Source of the DNA: a virus
Taxonomy: Duplodnaviria > Heunggongvirae > Uroviricota > Caudoviricetes
Strand: one strand, 5' to 3'
IMG/VR virus record: IMGVR_UViG_2778261381_000006
Span: 1-24,768 of that record
DNA: 24,768 bases
Part shown: positions 7,401 to 11,539 of the stretch, one piece after another
How the letters are laid out: each line of letters opens with the position of its first letter
Numbering within the stretch: position 1 is the stretch's first letter
The notes under the pieces: generated by a model
The model's input: the letters and a program-made list of their open reading frames with translations, nothing else
Told to the model about the DNA's origin: nothing
Databases searched by the model: none
Made by a program: the position numbers and the translations under genes

Positions 7401-7919
7401 GTCTTTCCCGCCCGCTGTAATCAGTGAGCTTATGATTTTTGCAAAATCGTTGCGTTGGAACACGCTACCGATGTCGGAAGTGAGCAGGATGATGTTGCCT
7501 TTGGCATATGTAGAAACCAACTGTTCGAGCGAGAGACGCGGTACAAAGTAGAACTGTTCTCGTGTGTTGGCCACCGTCATTAGTTCGCAGATGTCGCGAT
7601 ATCCTTGCTCATTTTTAATTAGAGCGGTAAACGAGTAGTTACGTCCCCGCTCTAATGATTCCATACATCTCATAGATTCTTTAGCAAGTTTAGCCCGGTG
7701 CTCGTATGTGGGATCATCAACGATATTTAGTTTCACACCACAAATAACCGCCATGTCGTCACCAGCGGCACGTTGTAGTGGAATAACACTCGCAATATTC
7801 ATGCTATCTGCTGAAATTACAGCGGTGTAGCCAGCTTCTCTGGCAATCTTCACCGCGTTTTCTGCTTTTAGAGCCGACTCCCCAAGTGAGAAGTCAGTTC
7901 GAACCATCAGTGCTTTCAT
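4401..7919 (-). CDS. dnaE: DNA polymerase III alpha subunit homologue (DnaE-type, C-family replicative polymerase), phage-encoded
   Basis: 1172 aa. N-terminal PHP-like region. Signature blocks match E. coli DnaE: [47 protein letters not shown]...[72 protein letters not shown]. Divergent elsewhere, consistent with a phage copy. Confidence 0.85.
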   Translation of the reverse strand: [1172 protein letters not shown]

Positions 7920-8103
7920 GTGTTTTTACCTTTATGGTTTTTTTGATTTTGTCATTGGGGAAGCCTACGAACTTCCCATACATCGAAATCGCAACTTCTT
8001 TTGCTGATTGGTGACAATCGGGCTTGTCTGGACATACCAGACAAGCCTTACCAGTTTCAGAAGCAGCGATAAGAGAGCCGAAACATCCTTTACGCACGAT
8101 CAA
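7894..8103 (-). CDS. Small Cys-rich ORF (69 aa), possible zinc-ribbon protein; uncertain
   Basis: TTG start overlaps the stop of the upstream AAA+ gene and the 3' end overlaps the dnaE-like start. Contains C...CLVCPDKPDC. No clear RBS. Confidence 0.25.
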   Translation of the reverse strand: MIVRKGCFGSLIAASETGKACLVCPDKPDCHQSAKEVAISMYGKFVGFPNDKIKKTIKVKTHESTDGSN

Positions 8104-9335: not shown

Positions 9336-9430
9336 GCGCTTTTCCTTTGTTCTCTAATGAGCGTTCAAGTTCTTATATAAATATACCATTAACTATGGTA
9401 AGTAGTTACTTATCATTAAGGCTGTTTTAA

Positions 9431-11539
9431 TTACTTCAAAATGATACGAGATAGTTCAGTAACTACAGATGAACCAAGACTATCAACACTAGTTACCAGG
9501 GCATGATTTGCGTAAAATCTCTCCGGTGCATCAGTCATGATGCCAATTGCCATCAAATCAATGTCAGTCTGCGTTTCAATTTGCTTCGTAACCGAACGCA
9601 AATGGGCGTCAAAACCTCTCCCAACAGCCCACGGCGCGCCATCACTCAGAACAAGCATGATCTTCCTGTCCTCCAAGCGACCGGAAAATAACGATGCAAG
9701 GCTGGCTATGCTTTCACCATCCACGTTATTAAGAAGTGGGAATGTGTAGCCTACGCACCCCATACGTGAGCGAACTTCGCGAGAATTTGCTTTTTCATTC
9801 CAATTTTTGATGATAGGTAGCATTAAAGATTCAAAGCGAGAGAACTCATATTTGATAGCCTTAAGTTCTCCTGCTGCCATATGACTGCCAAATGTAGTGA
9901 AGCCGGTGATAATGTTGGGAACATTTATTCGATCAAGTGCATCGGCGATGGTATATGCACTTGCAAGAGCTAGTTTTATCGTTTCGCCACTCATTGAACC
10001 CGATAAATCAATCACTTGTTGAACACAGGCGTTAACGGCTTTAGATTCTTCTTTTTTACGAAACACGCGATCATCATTCATTGTTAATCTGTAGATACTT
10101 GAACCATGAATGCGCCCCCGACGCTGGCCAGGTATAAACTGAACTCTGTTTCTGCTTGCTATTGCACGTTCCAGGTCTTTTGCCAGCGTCGACGAAACAC
10201 CTGACGAAAGGTGCTTTTCAATATATTTGTCGAAGAGCTGGTTGCCTTCAGGAACGATGCGATAACGGCTGATTGGATATCCACCTAAATCAATATCGGA
10301 GAATGTTTTAATAAGCCGTTTGATATGGGCTTCTGCCTGATCAATCGAGCCGATGAAGTCGTATGAGCGATTGTATGGCCTGTATTCGCTTTTCGAGCTT
10401 TCTGTTAACTCGCTTTTAATCGTTTCGGATAGCGCATCTTCTGTCATGCCTCCGACTTCATCTTCCATGCTATCCAACTCCTCTAAAGCCTCTTCCAGAC
10501 TCATTTTTGACGGAGTTGGAATGTCTGAAGAGCCGTCTTCTGTCGATTTTCTTTTTTCGTGGTCAGTGGTAAATGATTCTGACGCCGCGTTATCAGAAGC
10601 ACCAGAATCTGATACCTCTTTATCATTTTCTGTATCATCGAATATTGTTTCTGATGATTCAGAATTATCTGAATCATCACTGTCGTTATTATCATGTTTG
10701 TACTTACTGTGTGATTCTGATTTGATAGATTTGTGATTATCTAACGCTGAGGGTGTCTCATGATCTTCGTTGTCTTCATTGTTTTCTCCAGAGGCATCCG
10801 TCTGGTCAGCGTCTGAAGGATCGGAAGTTTTTCCCGGAGCTGACTCCTTACCTTTGCTTTCACTTTCAGTGTCTTTGAGGATCTTAGCTATGGTCGCAGC
10901 CACCTTTACACAATCCTCGGTGCAAGACATGTTACGCACGGCCACATCGATACCATGTTCTTTTAATAATGAAATTGGTTTCTCAATGACAGGCCAATAT
11001 TCATCCATGAAATCTACGAACGGTGCTTGGCCATCCCAGGCTCTTACAACCGGACAGAGAAAGAAGTTTAGAAAAAGCGCGCGCTGATCTTTGCCACAAT
11101 AAGCAATAGCCTCTGAAGCCTTTGTTTTAAAGACTTTTTCGATTATAAGGCGCTGAGTTGCCATCAGATTACGTCTTGTTCCGTTAAAGACCTGACCCAT
11201 TTTTCGCTCGATGAACACGTCTTCTAAGGCATTCCATAGCGACCAGGAAGGAACGCGTCCTTTTTCTCTCATTTTGTTGGACACACGAATATCGGTAAAC
11301 AAAATGTGAGCAACCTCATGATCGAGAAATCCGCGCACAGCATTCATCAATGCCGGTGTTGCGTTATCCGGGATTGATGGGATGTTTACGAGAATTGGCT
11401 CTCCATCATCGTTATAGCGTACATAAGCGTCGTCCCCTCGTTCTGCAACAGGGATGTTTTTACCTGAAAGGAGAGCGACTACTCGTTTTACACTGTCACG
11501 GAAGTCCTGAACCTCTTTGATGGAACGTTTTTTAGACAT
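9431..11539 (-). CDS. vWA-domain protein (CobT-like) with N-terminal HExxH motif and acidic central linker
   Basis: C-terminal MIDAS-type motif VIDLSGSMSGET. About 150 residues of D/E/S-rich low-complexity linker. N-terminal FLDHEVAHILF (HExxH). AAGGA RBS before the ATG. Confidence 0.8.
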   Translation of the reverse strand: MSKKRSIKEVQDFRDSVKRVVALLSGKNIPVAERGDDAYVRYNDDGEPILVNIPSIPDNATPALMNAVRGFLDHEVAHILFTDIRVSNKMREKGRVPSWSLWNALEDVFIERKMGQVFNGTRRNLMATQRLIIEKVFKTKASEAIAYCGKDQRALFLNFFLCPVVRAWDGQAPFVDFMDEYWPVIEKPISLLKEHGIDVAVRNMSCTEDCVKVAATIAKILKDTESESKGKESAPGKTSDPSDADQTDASGENNEDNEDHETPSALDNHKSIKSESHSKYKHDNNDSDDSDNSESSETIFDDTENDKEVSDSGASDNAASESFTTDHEKRKSTEDGSSDIPTPSKMSLEEALEELDSMEDEVGGMTEDALSETIKSELTESSKSEYRPYNRSYDFIGSIDQAEAHIKRLIKTFSDIDLGGYPISRYRIVPEGNQLFDKYIEKHLSSGVSSTLAKDLERAIASRNRVQFIPGQRRGRIHGSSIYRLTMNDDRVFRKKEESKAVNACVQQVIDLSGSMSGETIKLALASAYTIADALDRINVPNIITGFTTFGSHMAAGELKAIKYEFSRFESLMLPIIKNWNEKANSREVRSRMGCVGYTFPLLNNVDGESIASLASLFSGRLEDRKIMLVLSDGAPWAVGRGFDAHLRSVTKQIETQTDIDLMAIGIMTDAPERFYANHALVTSVDSLGSSVVTELSRIILK

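Follow-up and report, generated by a model that had tools for sequence, protein, structure and literature searches.

Gene organization of the locus

The analyzed window, i.e., the whole stretch of 24,768 nucleotides under study, belongs to an SSU5/Cyrano-type phage-plasmid of Escherichia coli, a siphovirus-type element of ~110 kb. Of 5426 complete E. coli genomes, 245 carry this element, plasmid-borne every time, and it has close relatives in Salmonella and Klebsiella. A run of genes on its minus strand comprises a CobT-family vWA adaptor (9431-11539, 702 aa), a CobS-family ATPase (MoxR-type, AAA_5; 8100-9335, 411 aa), a small four-Cys protein (7894-8103; 67 aa with GTG 8097 as start codon, 69 aa with TTG 8103) and a DnaE-type polymerase displaying PHP, Pol III alpha, fingers and HHH domains plus an extra C-terminal domain (4401-7919). 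The open reading frames and motifs that a first-pass annotation had described at 7894-11539 were confirmed, all of them on the minus strand, and its remark that the window holds no cobalamin-pathway context was borne out.

A 70-aa ORF of unknown function (11638-11850, phrog_2627), located 5' of the vWA gene and kept in L008-L011, is probably the first gene of the transcription unit; dnaE is the last gene of the unit that it shares with the pair, and a G+C-rich palindromic hairpin just 3' of the dnaE stop (4373-4394; 9-bp stem, 6 GC pairs) likely marks the operon end. A convincing sigma-70-like site was not found on the minus strand from 11850 to 4401, the sole exception among the candidates being one 9-of-12 match within the vWA gene. 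The small ORF overlaps the stop of the ATPase gene and, by 26 nt, the start of dnaE. The vWA and ATPase genes share a transcript with the phage dnaE and are translationally coupled to it, and the adaptor gene precedes the motor gene, as opposed to the cobS-cobT order of the Brucellaceae genome examined. In the LF82 lysogen, CYRAN_47, CYRAN_48 and CYRAN_49 displayed 7.8, 6.7 and 10.1 normalised reads, respectively, i.e., background, versus 96 for the repressor; the pair is silent in the plasmid-prophage state.

The small ORF, with Cys at positions 7, 21, 24 and 30, matched phrog_6337 (E 2e-44), is annotated as SSU5_051 in SSU5, and yielded no PDB match. Its comparison with four relatives, one of which has ATG at the place of GTG 8097, revealed substitutions biased to the third codon position and conservation of all four Cys. 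It is thereby a real gene bridging to the polymerase gene, as previously proposed, but one confined to the SSU5 subgroup (L008-L012).

A CobS-family ATPase with a distinct N-terminus

The ATPase matched AAA_5, as the first-pass annotation had anticipated (Pfam, 57 bits), as well as phrog_249 (E 2e-106). It shares the AAA_5 ATPase core of the CobSTN complex (PDB 9ujv, 9uka; Zhou et al., 2026, bioRxiv 10.64898/2026.07.21.739949), CobS being its closest solved structure (9ujv_A, residues 141-411 aligned to 38-315, E 1.8e-25), ahead of CbbQ (E 5e-6) and NorQ (E 1.5e-3). Residues invariant in 17 relatives (G175, G178, G180, K181, D241, E242, N288, N290, R312, R352 and R367) include those of Walker A (GHAGTGKS, G175-HAGTGK-S182; 8790-8813) and Walker B (W236-VYLA-D241-E242; 8610-8630), and candidate sensor and Arg residues.

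Two regions depart from CobS. The alignment to CobS starts only at residue 141, and residues 1-140 (8916-9335) constitute an extension absent from bona fide CobS, with no PDB relative found; instead of the CobS_N domain, for which no Pfam match was obtained in the phage protein and which real CobS has, this extension carries a C18-x2-C21-x4-H26-x4-H31 motif (nt 9243-9284). The motif was found in 18 of 23 ATPase relatives (C21 being replaced by D in 5, and H31 by Y in 2), and residues 17-33 were modelled with low confidence, from the single sequence, as a hairpin plus a helix. The N-terminus had been regarded as Cys-rich, and it does contain Cys 18, 21 and 37; however, C37 lies inside an insertion confined to the SSU5 subgroup, and the feature is more properly the C-x2-C-x4-H-x4-H motif. 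Further, the phage ATPase lacks the last 13 CobS residues. The C-terminal tail of CobS helix 10, from which E317 and a hydrophobic patch enter the interface with CobT_N (Zhou et al., 2026), is missing, and the shaft-contacting S102 and D110 are not kept; therefore, the docking geometry may differ from that of CobST.

A CobT-like adaptor harboring an intact HExxH motif

The vWA protein, named 'cobaltochelatase CobT-related protein' by RefSeq/PGAP, matched Pfam CobT with 97 bits over the whole protein (80.5 bits with residues 1-235 alone), the CobT_C vWA profile with 278 bits (profile positions 1-219 of 220), and phrog_1576 (E 7e-300); its relatives range from 684 to 790 aa, and its closest solved structure is CobT (PDB 9uka_G on residues 435-697, E 7e-13). 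The combination of HEVAH, acidic linker and vWA MIDAS recognized in the first-pass annotation was recovered as an N-terminal M48/zincin-like domain (residues 1-225; 10865-11539) with HEVAH at 74-78, an acidic Ser/Thr-rich low-complexity linker (residues about 226-385; 10385-10864) whose 160 residues include 48 D/E and 44 S/T but only 14 K/R, and a C-terminal module (residues 435-702; 9434-10237) in which the vWA domain comes after a segment that aligns with the CobT 'shaft' (phmmer alignment to CobT residues 346-616). The MIDAS DLSGS (D511-L-S513-G-S515; 9995-10009) is completed by N606 and D633, and these five residues pair with CobT D422, S424, S426, N518 and D546.

This layout is that of CobT, which likewise comprises an M48-like N-domain (so described by Zhou et al., 2026), a disordered linker that is acidic in both proteins (about 90 residues in bona fide CobT), a shaft-like segment, and a vWA domain carrying identical MIDAS residues. 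Moreover, G70, D73 and N124 of the phage N-domain, invariant or nearly so in an alignment with 127 relatives, align with CobT G77, D80 and N130; the crystal structure has D80 and N130, together with nearby R76, in contact with the CobS lid (Zhou et al., 2026), and the conservation of the phage residues fits a kept docking on the ATPase.

Since N-domain, acidic linker and vWA are also the architecture of bona fide CobT, what sets the phage protein apart is its intact catalytic motif. It carries one HExxH, HEVAH (H74, E75, V, A, H78; 11306-11320), a putative motif for zinc binding and catalysis located on helix 62-81. The following helix (98-117) bears E106-D107-x3-E111 (11207-11224), where E106, D107 or E111 is a candidate third metal ligand, as in the 'glutamate helix' of gluzincins. 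An HExxH alone is weak evidence, because 1.8% of shuffles of the protein contained one by chance; it is its conservation among homologous sequences that makes it meaningful. Among the 150 closest representatives of 50%-identity clusters, 147 cover the region and all of these have the motif, and H74, E75, H78, E106, D107 and E111 were invariant in a 127-sequence alignment (127/127; ~35% identity). In zincins, the Glu of HExxH (here E75) is the catalytic base, not a metal ligand. Conversely, none of 120 bona fide CobT N-domains displayed HExxH, the position reading [SA][MI]AL[RK] in 120/120; thus, where the phage proteins keep HExxH and D107, CobT has the pattern [SA][MI]xx[RK] and a Q (E-Q...E in place of E106-D107-x3-E111).

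The predicted structure of the N-domain displayed a confident fold with a zincin-like layout, which together with the strict conservation of the motif agrees with the metallopeptidase-like character formerly attributed to HEVAH. Foldseek tied this domain to vWA proteins of haloarchaeal viruses. The DUF2201-type match that had been expected did not appear: the N-domain matched no peptidase Pfam family (M48 and M56 among them), DUF2201 or DUF2201_N, even at E <= 1. Its similarity to M48/M56 gluzincins such as Ste24/ZMPSTE24, HtpX and BlaR1 is weak, and these are membrane-embedded, whereas the phage domain is soluble.

Relationship to the cobaltochelatase

The pair is a member of the CobS/CobT family. 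Nonetheless, the ATPase scored 84.8 bits against the 558.55-bit equivalog cut-off of TIGR01650 (real CobS), and the vWA protein 74.4 bits against the 759.05-bit cut-off of TIGR01651 (real CobT); because both scores fall far under the cut-offs, the two proteins are not chelatase orthologues, and the clear orthology to cobaltochelatase subunits that would have contradicted the first-pass annotation was not observed. Its interpretation was upheld in part: chelatase orthology was not found and HExxH is kept, but CobS and CobT are the best solved relatives and no DUF2201 or peptidase Pfam family was matched. Given the best matches to CobS (E 2e-25) and CobT (E 7e-13) and the lack of a DUF2201 match, a generic MoxR/DUF2201 module is no better fit than CobST, and the pair is not of the DUF2201 type.

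Viral cobST genes are widespread in tailed viruses of bacteria and archaea and are core genes of cyanophages; there, the name given to cobT, which is 'usually annotated as a peptidase', was regarded as a mistake (Liu et al., 2021, PLoS Biol 19:e3001442). The clusters in that study represent the same gene pair, and were interpreted as auxiliary metabolic genes whose CobS/CobT hijack the host CobN and increase cobalamin synthesis, the standard viromics reading. This proposal finds a basis in the homology to CobS/CobT, which spans the ATPase, N-domain, linker and vWA, and in the fact that some relatives of the pair infect Rhizobium and Pseudomonas. These bacteria possess the aerobic cobalamin pathway. 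Conversely, the element was found only on E. coli plasmids, with close kin in Salmonella and Klebsiella; none of these three hosts is known to have CobN, nor is E. coli known to have the aerobic cobalamin pathway. Motif conservation and CobN-less hosts argue against the CobN-hijack interpretation (Liu et al., 2021). The occupation of the same syntenic slot across such hosts argues for a CobN-independent function, and the scores far under the equivalog cut-offs, the strictly kept HExxH that real CobT is missing, and the location of the pair, with no CobN partner, in a replication operon that is silent in the lysogen also stand against a metabolic role, which we consider very unlikely.

Conserved gene neighbourhood

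Each of the 22 related viral contigs long enough to include the polymerase gene (set L008-L030, in which the 5.5-kb L019 stops after the ATPase) has its genes arranged as primase, ligase ... vWA, ATPase, DnaE, UvsY, gp32, even where N-domain identity falls to 31%, and Pseudomonas phage nickie and Rhizobium phage RHEph10 share this arrangement, these loci belonging to phages of Alpha- and Gammaproteobacteria. Homologues of the pair are also carried by distant T4-like viral contigs, adjoining gp46/gp47-like nuclease genes, the gp45 clamp, RNase H and RNR. Such synteny may stem simply from a core module being passed on vertically, and not from functional coupling. In one T4-unrelated group (3 loci), the pair has a terminase gene only a few kb away, so that its placement outside the structural module is not absolute.

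Jumbo phages of group 2.2 were reported to combine a MoxR ATPase with a vWA protein that bears a metallopeptidase at its N-terminus (Iyer et al., 2021, Viruses 13:63, PMC7824862), so that the peptidase-vWA plus MoxR reading is already published; going by the published description only, that pair (ASV44729.1, ASV44728.2) has the same architecture as the one studied here. Those authors proposed a role in virion assembly with proteolytic processing in jumbo myoviruses, citing the MoxR-vWA precedent in tail development of the Acidianus two-tailed virus (ATV), and a chaperone or protease that folds or processes structural proteins could be envisaged for the present pair. However, the latter occurs in a siphovirus-type phage-plasmid in replication context, is translationally coupled to dnaE, and in every examined locus lies among replication, recombination or nucleotide-metabolism genes, outside the structural module; a role in assembly is accordingly improbable, if slightly less so than the two readings that follow.

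The neighbouring genes also bring to mind a chaperone for metal insertion or maturation of a phage metalloenzyme (e.g., the DnaE PHP domain or an Mre11-like nuclease), with HExxH holding the metal: MoxR-vWA systems such as NorQD, CoxDE and CobST are typically metal-insertion or enzyme-activation chaperones, and metal-dependent DNA enzymes adjoin the pair, namely the PHP-domain DnaE and, in T4-like loci, Metallophos/SMC-type nucleases. We regard this as doubtful, as the catalytic Glu of HExxH is invariant though needless for pure metal binding, and the pair is absent from most DnaE-encoding phages (DnaE-like polymerases occurred in 1188 phage records, the N-domain in only 34).

To a similarly low degree we contemplate a host-takeover or counter-defence protease, which would cut a host factor of defence, replication or stress in the early lytic stage. 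Conflict systems widely include vWA-MoxR systems that have peptidase effectors, phages often encode zincins thought to act on host proteins (Iyer et al., 2021), and the silence of the gene in the lysogen is in line with such a role; yet PADLOC gave no significant match, only a marginal DrmE, and a gene so strictly conserved in place and sequence among alpha- and gammaproteobacterial phages fits a core housekeeping role better than a fast-evolving arms race.

A proposed motor-adaptor with a live zincin

Considering these findings, we favor, with a probability of about 0.5, that the pair constitutes an ATP-driven motor-adaptor of the CobS/CobT family with a live zincin, not a cobaltochelatase, acting on a client in lytic DNA metabolism. 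In the solved CobSTN complex, the CobT shaft inserts into the CobS ring (Zhou et al., 2026). By homology to CobST(N), the phage ATPase would form a hexameric ring, the vWA protein would push the helical shaft preceding its vWA domain into the ring pore, and its N-terminal domain would dock on the ATPase, with the client gripped between the N-domain sheet and the vWA MIDAS face, at the place that CobN takes in the chelatase. The N-domain would act as a live M48-like zincin, binding metal through HExxH and a downstream Glu, and ATP-driven remodelling may then offer a client segment to this putative peptidase site for cleavage or processing. The client would most likely be a phage or host protein handled in lytic DNA metabolism, since the pair is DnaE-coupled, is part of a replication/recombination module, and stays silent while the phage is a plasmid-prophage. 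The searchable literature holds no biochemical or genetic data on any family member. Phage gene pairs of this type were known before; because its adaptor keeps an intact zinc-protease site that the real chelatase is missing, the one in the window is probably a protein-remodelling or cutting machine, and not a vitamin-synthesis gene.

The motor-adaptor-client logic, with a vWA MIDAS adaptor, is common to the phage pair and to NorQ/NorD, CbbQ/CbbO, CoxD/CoxE and RavA/ViaA; however, the adaptors of these systems display neither an M48-like N-domain nor a peptidase site, and their clients are metalloenzymes or Rubisco.

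Organization of the predicted phage-plasmid operon

The studied pair, a 702-aa vWA protein (CobT-family adaptor) and a 411-aa AAA_5 ATPase (CobS-family motor), is carried by an SSU5/Cyrano-type phage-plasmid. Escherichia phage Cyrano (pLF82) and similar records are 97-98% identical to the 3.6-kb region, and Salmonella phage SSU5 about 74%; several E. coli plasmids of ~110 kb match at 100% identity. Of 5426 complete E. coli genomes, 245 (about 4.5%) contain the element, which is plasmid-borne in each of them.

Five minus-strand genes are sequentially arranged: a 70-aa ORF (11850-11638), the vWA gene (702 aa; 11539-9431), the ATPase gene (411 aa; 9335-8100), a Cys-rich ORF of 67-69 aa (8103/8097-7894) and the gene of a DnaE-type polymerase (1172 aa; 7919-4401). 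The small ORF begins within the stop codon of the ATPase gene (ggTTGAtcGTG), its last 26 nt overlap dnaE, a strong palindromic hairpin is located 3' of dnaE, and a promoter scan returned a number of sites not above chance expectation, with no convincing internal promoter. Based on these overlaps, the hairpin and the promoter scan, the five genes look like one transcription unit, the last three cistrons of which would be translationally coupled.

The Cys-rich ORF bridges to the polymerase gene, as the first-pass annotation had proposed, and contains four Cys, which are kept among relatives. It matches phrog_6337, is named SSU5_051 in the SSU5 annotation, and is restricted to the SSU5 subgroup; its substitutions favour third positions of codons, and in one relative an ATG replaces the GTG at 8097. 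It is a real gene, and a PDB sequence search with its product returned no match.

Relationship to cobaltochelatase subunits

Among solved structures, the closest to the ATPase is that of cobaltochelatase CobS (E 1.8e-25 over residues 141-411), with midasin, CbbQ (5e-6) and NorQ (1.5e-3) all being more distant, and the closest to the vWA protein is CobT. The vWA protein also displays the succession that defines the CobT superfamily, namely a PF06213 match (97 bits, cut-off 26.1), a linker, and a PF11775 CobT_C match (278.3, cut-off 21). The elements that the first-pass annotation had read from the DNA are all present: the HEVAH motif at residues 74-78; an acidic linker at about 226-385, which is also Ser/Thr-rich (48 D/E and 44 S/T per 160 residues); a MIDAS motif (DLSGS, residues 511-515); and a Cys-rich ATPase N-terminus (Cys 18, 21 and 37) in a protein matching AAA_5 at 57.4 bits (cut-off 22). 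The MIDAS is complete, with D511, S513, S515, N606 and D633 aligned to D422, S424, S426, N518 and D546 of CobT. Walker A (GHAGTGKS, residues 175-182) and Walker B of the ATPase are intact as well, residues G175, G178, G180, K181, D241 and E242 being invariant among 17 relatives.

Neither protein reached the equivalog level, as the ATPase scored 84.8 bits against the CobS model TIGR01650 (cut-off 558.55), and the vWA protein 74.4 bits, in its vWA part only, against the CobT model TIGR01651 (cut-off 759.05); the clear chelatase orthology that would speak against the first-pass annotation was thus not found. Real CobS comprises CobS_N plus AAA_5, whereas the ATPase matched AAA_5 alone, with no match to CobS_N (PF12556). 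PGAP goes no further than the names 'AAA family ATPase' and 'cobaltochelatase CobT-related protein'. Since the Pfam and PDB matches are to CobS/CobT and the equivalog scores are far below cut-offs, the pair belongs to the CobS/CobT superfamily without being orthologous to the chelatase subunits. Its homology to the CobS/CobT motor-adaptor is very probable.

No CobN-like gene was found among the annotated neighbours in Cyrano and SSU5, and DnaE is the sole ORF of that size in the window. E. coli is not known to possess cobN or the aerobic B12 pathway, and the pair very likely does not function as a cobaltochelatase there. Viromics studies routinely count the phage cobS and cobT genes as 'auxiliary metabolic genes' for vitamin B12, and these two belong to the genes most frequently given that label. 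Clusters of cobST across tailed viruses have already been reported by authors who pointed to the cobT of cyanophages, 'usually annotated as a peptidase', judged this annotation to be mistaken, and proposed the hijacking of CobN (Liu et al. 2021, PLoS Biol 19:e3001442). For the pair described here, such hijacking of CobN as an auxiliary metabolic function seems very improbable.

In Cyrano (OV696614), positions 12207-15646, corresponding to window 8100-11539, carry genes named 'cobalamin synthetase' and 'dimethylbenzimidazole phosphoribosyltransferase'. We take these to be the CobS and CobT of the nucleotide-loop pathway in Salmonella nomenclature, unrelated proteins with the same gene names; the Cyrano annotation error would therefore stem from a gene-name collision.

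The first-pass annotation had favored a MoxR/vWA-peptidase module and suggested DUF2201-type domains. Membership in the DUF2201 type (PF13203 plus PF09967) did not hold, as no DUF2201_N or DUF2201 VWA-like match was obtained with the full protein (E <= 0.01) or with its N-domain (E <= 1), and these families were absent from the 25 most frequent families over 25 homologues (E <= 1). Further, no peptidase Pfam family matched the vWA protein, even at permissive thresholds or across the 25 homologues. Membership in a defence system was also rejected: the only PADLOC match of the vWA protein was to DrmE, marginal (E 5.5e-4, 16.6 bits) and within the low-complexity linker, and neither the ATPase nor the small ORF was matched.

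A conserved zincin-like N-terminal domain

An HMMER search with residues 1-235 of the vWA protein against 1.84 billion cluster representatives recovered 1142 clusters (E <= 1e-3). HExxH is present in 147 of the best 150 of these 1142 clusters, the remaining three being fragments without the region. Because the motif arises by chance in 1.8% of vWA-protein shuffles, the evidence for it rests on this conservation. Residues G35, P54, G70, D73, H74, E75, H78, E106, D107, E111, G120 and R166 are invariant in a 127-sequence alignment with about 35% identity, from which a 25-sequence subset was also examined.

The AlphaFold2 model of the N-domain (25 diverse homologues) is confident, with pLDDT 90.5 and pTM 0.86. 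It displays a long first helix followed by a small sheet (bridge 31-32, strands 39-42 and 48-52), a helix at 62-81 bearing HExxH (H74, E75, H78), a helix at 98-117 bearing E106, D107 and E111, and further helices. With the invariant HExxH on one helix and a candidate third-ligand Glu (E106/E111) on the next, the predicted layout is that of a gluzincin. Bona fide CobT_N was reported to have the same layout in its crystal structure, which consists of a three-stranded sheet with one helix before and eight after, and was likened to peptidase M48C in a work where phages are not mentioned (2026 CobSTN preprint, bioRxiv 10.64898/2026.07.21.739949). Foldseek returned nothing significant for the model in the PDB, and linked it, among predicted viral structures, to vWA proteins of siphoviruses, podoviruses, haloarchaeal tailed viruses and actinophages.

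Searches of solved structures with phmmer and the 25-sequence profile of the N-domain found neither CobT_N nor any peptidase. The sole match of the profile, a marginal one, was to AcrIIA26 (PDB 9zq6_B; E 0.0025, 50 residues), at vWA residues about 95-144 (window about 11108-11257), and spans the 'glutamate helix' motif N..ED.FIE...G..N; it may be due to chance, or AcrIIA26 may be derived from a zincin-like domain.

Comparison with bona fide CobT and CobS

For a position-by-position comparison, 120 bona fide CobT N-domain sequences were collected by a separate homologue search. The N-terminus of a Brucellaceae CobT, whose gene is frameshifted in that assembly, was recovered, the protein being 99% identical to the solved one over the comparable C-terminal part. 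The register between the N-domain and CobT was set with hhalign (E 8e-4 against one sequence, 2.9e-4 profile to profile, 160 columns), and is supported by the Pfam family that both share.

HExxH is found in none of the 120 CobT N-domains (0/120), where D-[SA]-[MI]-A-L-[RK] takes the place of D73-H74-E75-V-A-H78, and E-Q...E that of E106-D107...E111. The invariant or nearly invariant residues G70, D73 and N124 are the counterparts of G77, D80 and N130 in CobT. In the chelatase, the CobS lid is contacted by D80, N130 and the neighbouring R76 of CobT (CobSTN preprint, bioRxiv 10.64898/2026.07.21.739949). R76 is aligned with R69, a position at which most relatives have Q. The residues specific to the phage-type clade are therefore exactly those of the zincin catalytic set, E75 included. 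The HExxH Glu is the general base of zincins, and E75 would not be required for a purely structural or metal-holding role. A chaperone for metal insertion, in which the site would hold metal for delivery, is hence an improbable reading of the pair.

The CobT shaft segment that enters the CobS ring has an aligned counterpart in the C-terminal half of the vWA protein. On the motor side, CobS_N is replaced in the phage ATPase by an unrelated 140-residue N-extension, and the last 13 residues of CobS are absent. A region of the ATPase aligns with the CobS H2 insert, with two 2-residue gaps, the shaft-contacting S102 and D110 not being kept. The N-extension carries the motif C18-x2-C21-x4-H26-x4-H31 in 18 of 23 relatives (C21 is replaced by D in five, and H31 by Y in two); its single-sequence structure model was poor (pLDDT 37), and a PDB sequence search returned no match. 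Motor N-extensions vary widely among clades, given that the CobS-like gene upstream of the CobT-like gene in the 58-kb Roseobacter phage CRP-810 (record L006, 1827-5645) encodes 618 aa, and a similarly long ATPase of 656 aa occurs in viral contig L040, versus 411 aa here.

Genomic context and expression of the pair

The pair maps between an ATP-dependent ligase and DnaE in Cyrano, SSU5, Pseudomonas phage nickie and Rhizobium phage RHEph10, inside a block running from helicase, primase and ligase to DnaE. A pattern scan of IMG/VR identified 53 loci. In the closest of them, with N-domain identities from 99% down to 31%, the ATPase gene directly follows the vWA gene (23/23), and DnaE is next after the pair in all 22 that extend far enough; beyond DnaE, UvsY-like and then gp32-like genes are found wherever the contig continues, and primase-like and ligase genes lie upstream. 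Distant loci display the reversed order, ATPase then vWA. Six T4-like contigs have the pair adjoining gp46/gp47-like nuclease genes (SMC and Metallophos) and the gp45 clamp, and other distant groups have RNase H, class I RNR or terminase close by.

A role as a dedicated DnaE accessory factor was weakened by these data, as 1188 phage records contain a DnaE-like polymerase versus only 34 with the N-domain, and the T4-like contigs carry the pair without DnaE. The pair is thus associated with the DNA-metabolism modules of two different replication systems rather than specifically with DnaE, and some of the synteny may simply have been inherited. In group 2.2 jumbo phages, a MoxR ATPase and a vWA protein with an N-terminal metallopeptidase have been described, for which a role in virion assembly was proposed (Iyer et al. 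2021, PMC7824862). A chaperone of virion assembly is an unlikely function for the pair studied here, which is found in these DNA-metabolism modules.

Expression of the pair and of dnaE is at background level in published transcriptomes of the LF82 lysogen, with 7.8 (vWA), 6.7 (ATPase) and 10.1 (DnaE) normalised reads, compared to 96 for the repressor and 141 for HicB. Therefore, the pair and dnaE are unlikely to be lysogenic-conversion or plasmid-maintenance genes.

Regarding the rest of the module, a T4-type gp32 SSB (Pfam gp32, E 2e-66) and a UvsY-like mediator are encoded directly downstream of dnaE (window 871-2448, minus strand) and are conserved in the clade; their adjacency indicates that a bacterial-type Pol III alpha is combined with T4-type recombination proteins. 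DnaE (4401-7919, minus strand) bears an extra C-terminal domain at about residues 1000-1172 (phrog_13175 and phrog_4335), called uracil-DNA-glycosylase-like in the RHEph10 record. In three related viral contigs (L011, 13766-18021; L012, 12176-15772; L022, 13681-17827), the DnaE frame comes as two parts lying about 70-700 nt apart, which could reflect an insertion, a frameshift, or an intein or intron.

Proposed function and implications

Overall, we read the pair as an ATP-driven motor-adaptor whose putatively live zincin would act on a client in phage DNA metabolism, a reading to which we assign a probability of about 0.5. By homology to the cobaltochelatase complex CobSTN, a hexameric ATPase ring would hold the adaptor shaft, and the N-domain of the adaptor would dock onto the ATPase. 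The client would be held between the N-domain sheet and the MIDAS face, i.e., the place of CobN in the chelatase; in zincins, the corresponding edge of the sheet is where the substrate strand binds. ATP-driven movement would then feed a segment of the client to the adjoining putative peptidase site. Timing and gene context point to a phage or host protein of DNA replication or recombination as the client. A protease devoted to host takeover appears improbable. A more specific proposal, which we advance tentatively and hold to be less likely, is that phage 'CobS/CobT' constitutes an ATP-driven, MIDAS-targeted metalloprotease, a two-component counterpart of AAA+ proteases, with a role in the replication or recombination of phage DNA. 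With its catalytic HExxH retained, it would stand for the ancestral condition, from which the aerobic cobaltochelatase adaptor CobT would have arisen by inactivation of the peptidase domain.

If the live-HExxH clade is truly a protease-chaperone of the replication module, many of the ecological inferences on B12 drawn from these genes would be wrong. In evolutionary terms, the comparison lets the recently solved N-domain of CobT be read as a dead peptidase. The searchable literature holds no functional study of any phage CobS/CobT member, nor does it say explicitly that the HExxH lost from chelatase CobT is retained in the phage clade. The architecture and the doubt on a chelatase role were already published, so no framework is overturned; the contrast between live and dead peptidases and the conserved replication-operon context are modest additions. 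The locus constitutes a convenient test case, as it is carried by a plasmid-prophage of E. coli, a host not known to have the aerobic B12 pathway, and the related phages SSU5 and Cyrano are inducible or culturable.

Additional features of the element

A HicA/HicB toxin-antitoxin pair, so annotated in Cyrano, is located at window 2704-3552 (plus strand); it matches the PADLOC candidate defence system PDC-M06A/B (E 1e-19 and 2e-32) and is among the top-expressed Cyrano genes in the LF82 lysogen. A cspA thermoregulator RNA at 3704-4122 (plus strand) matches Rfam RF01766 over its full length (185.7 bits, gathering score 78) and covers a 103-aa cold-shock-domain ORF (3786-4097; PADLOC CSD_V, E 2.6e-15), which indicates a cspA-type cold-shock gene with a thermosensing 5' leader between hicB and the dnaE end.

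A low-GC island (31-36% versus about 45% in the flanks) at 14182-15510 (plus strand) and 15762-16316 (minus strand) adjoins the integrase and repressor genes and looks like a slot for accessory or moron cargo. It encodes ORFs of 442 aa (phrog_18168, with no significant Pfam or PADLOC match) and 184 aa (phrog_15156); at this position, Cyrano has only a 184-aa hypothetical gene, without an annotated ORF of the 442-aa size. Four tRNAs (Ser-TGA, Thr-TGT, Tyr-GTA and Asn-GTT) are clustered at 16610-17237 (minus strand), the equivalent place having three in the Cyrano annotation (Ser, Thr, Asn) and one in SSU5 (Asn). Amid the replication genes, on the opposite strand, a 417-aa ORF (22245-23498, plus strand; phrog_8741) has a P-loop that weakly matches PtuA, a defence ATPase (E 1.5e-4).
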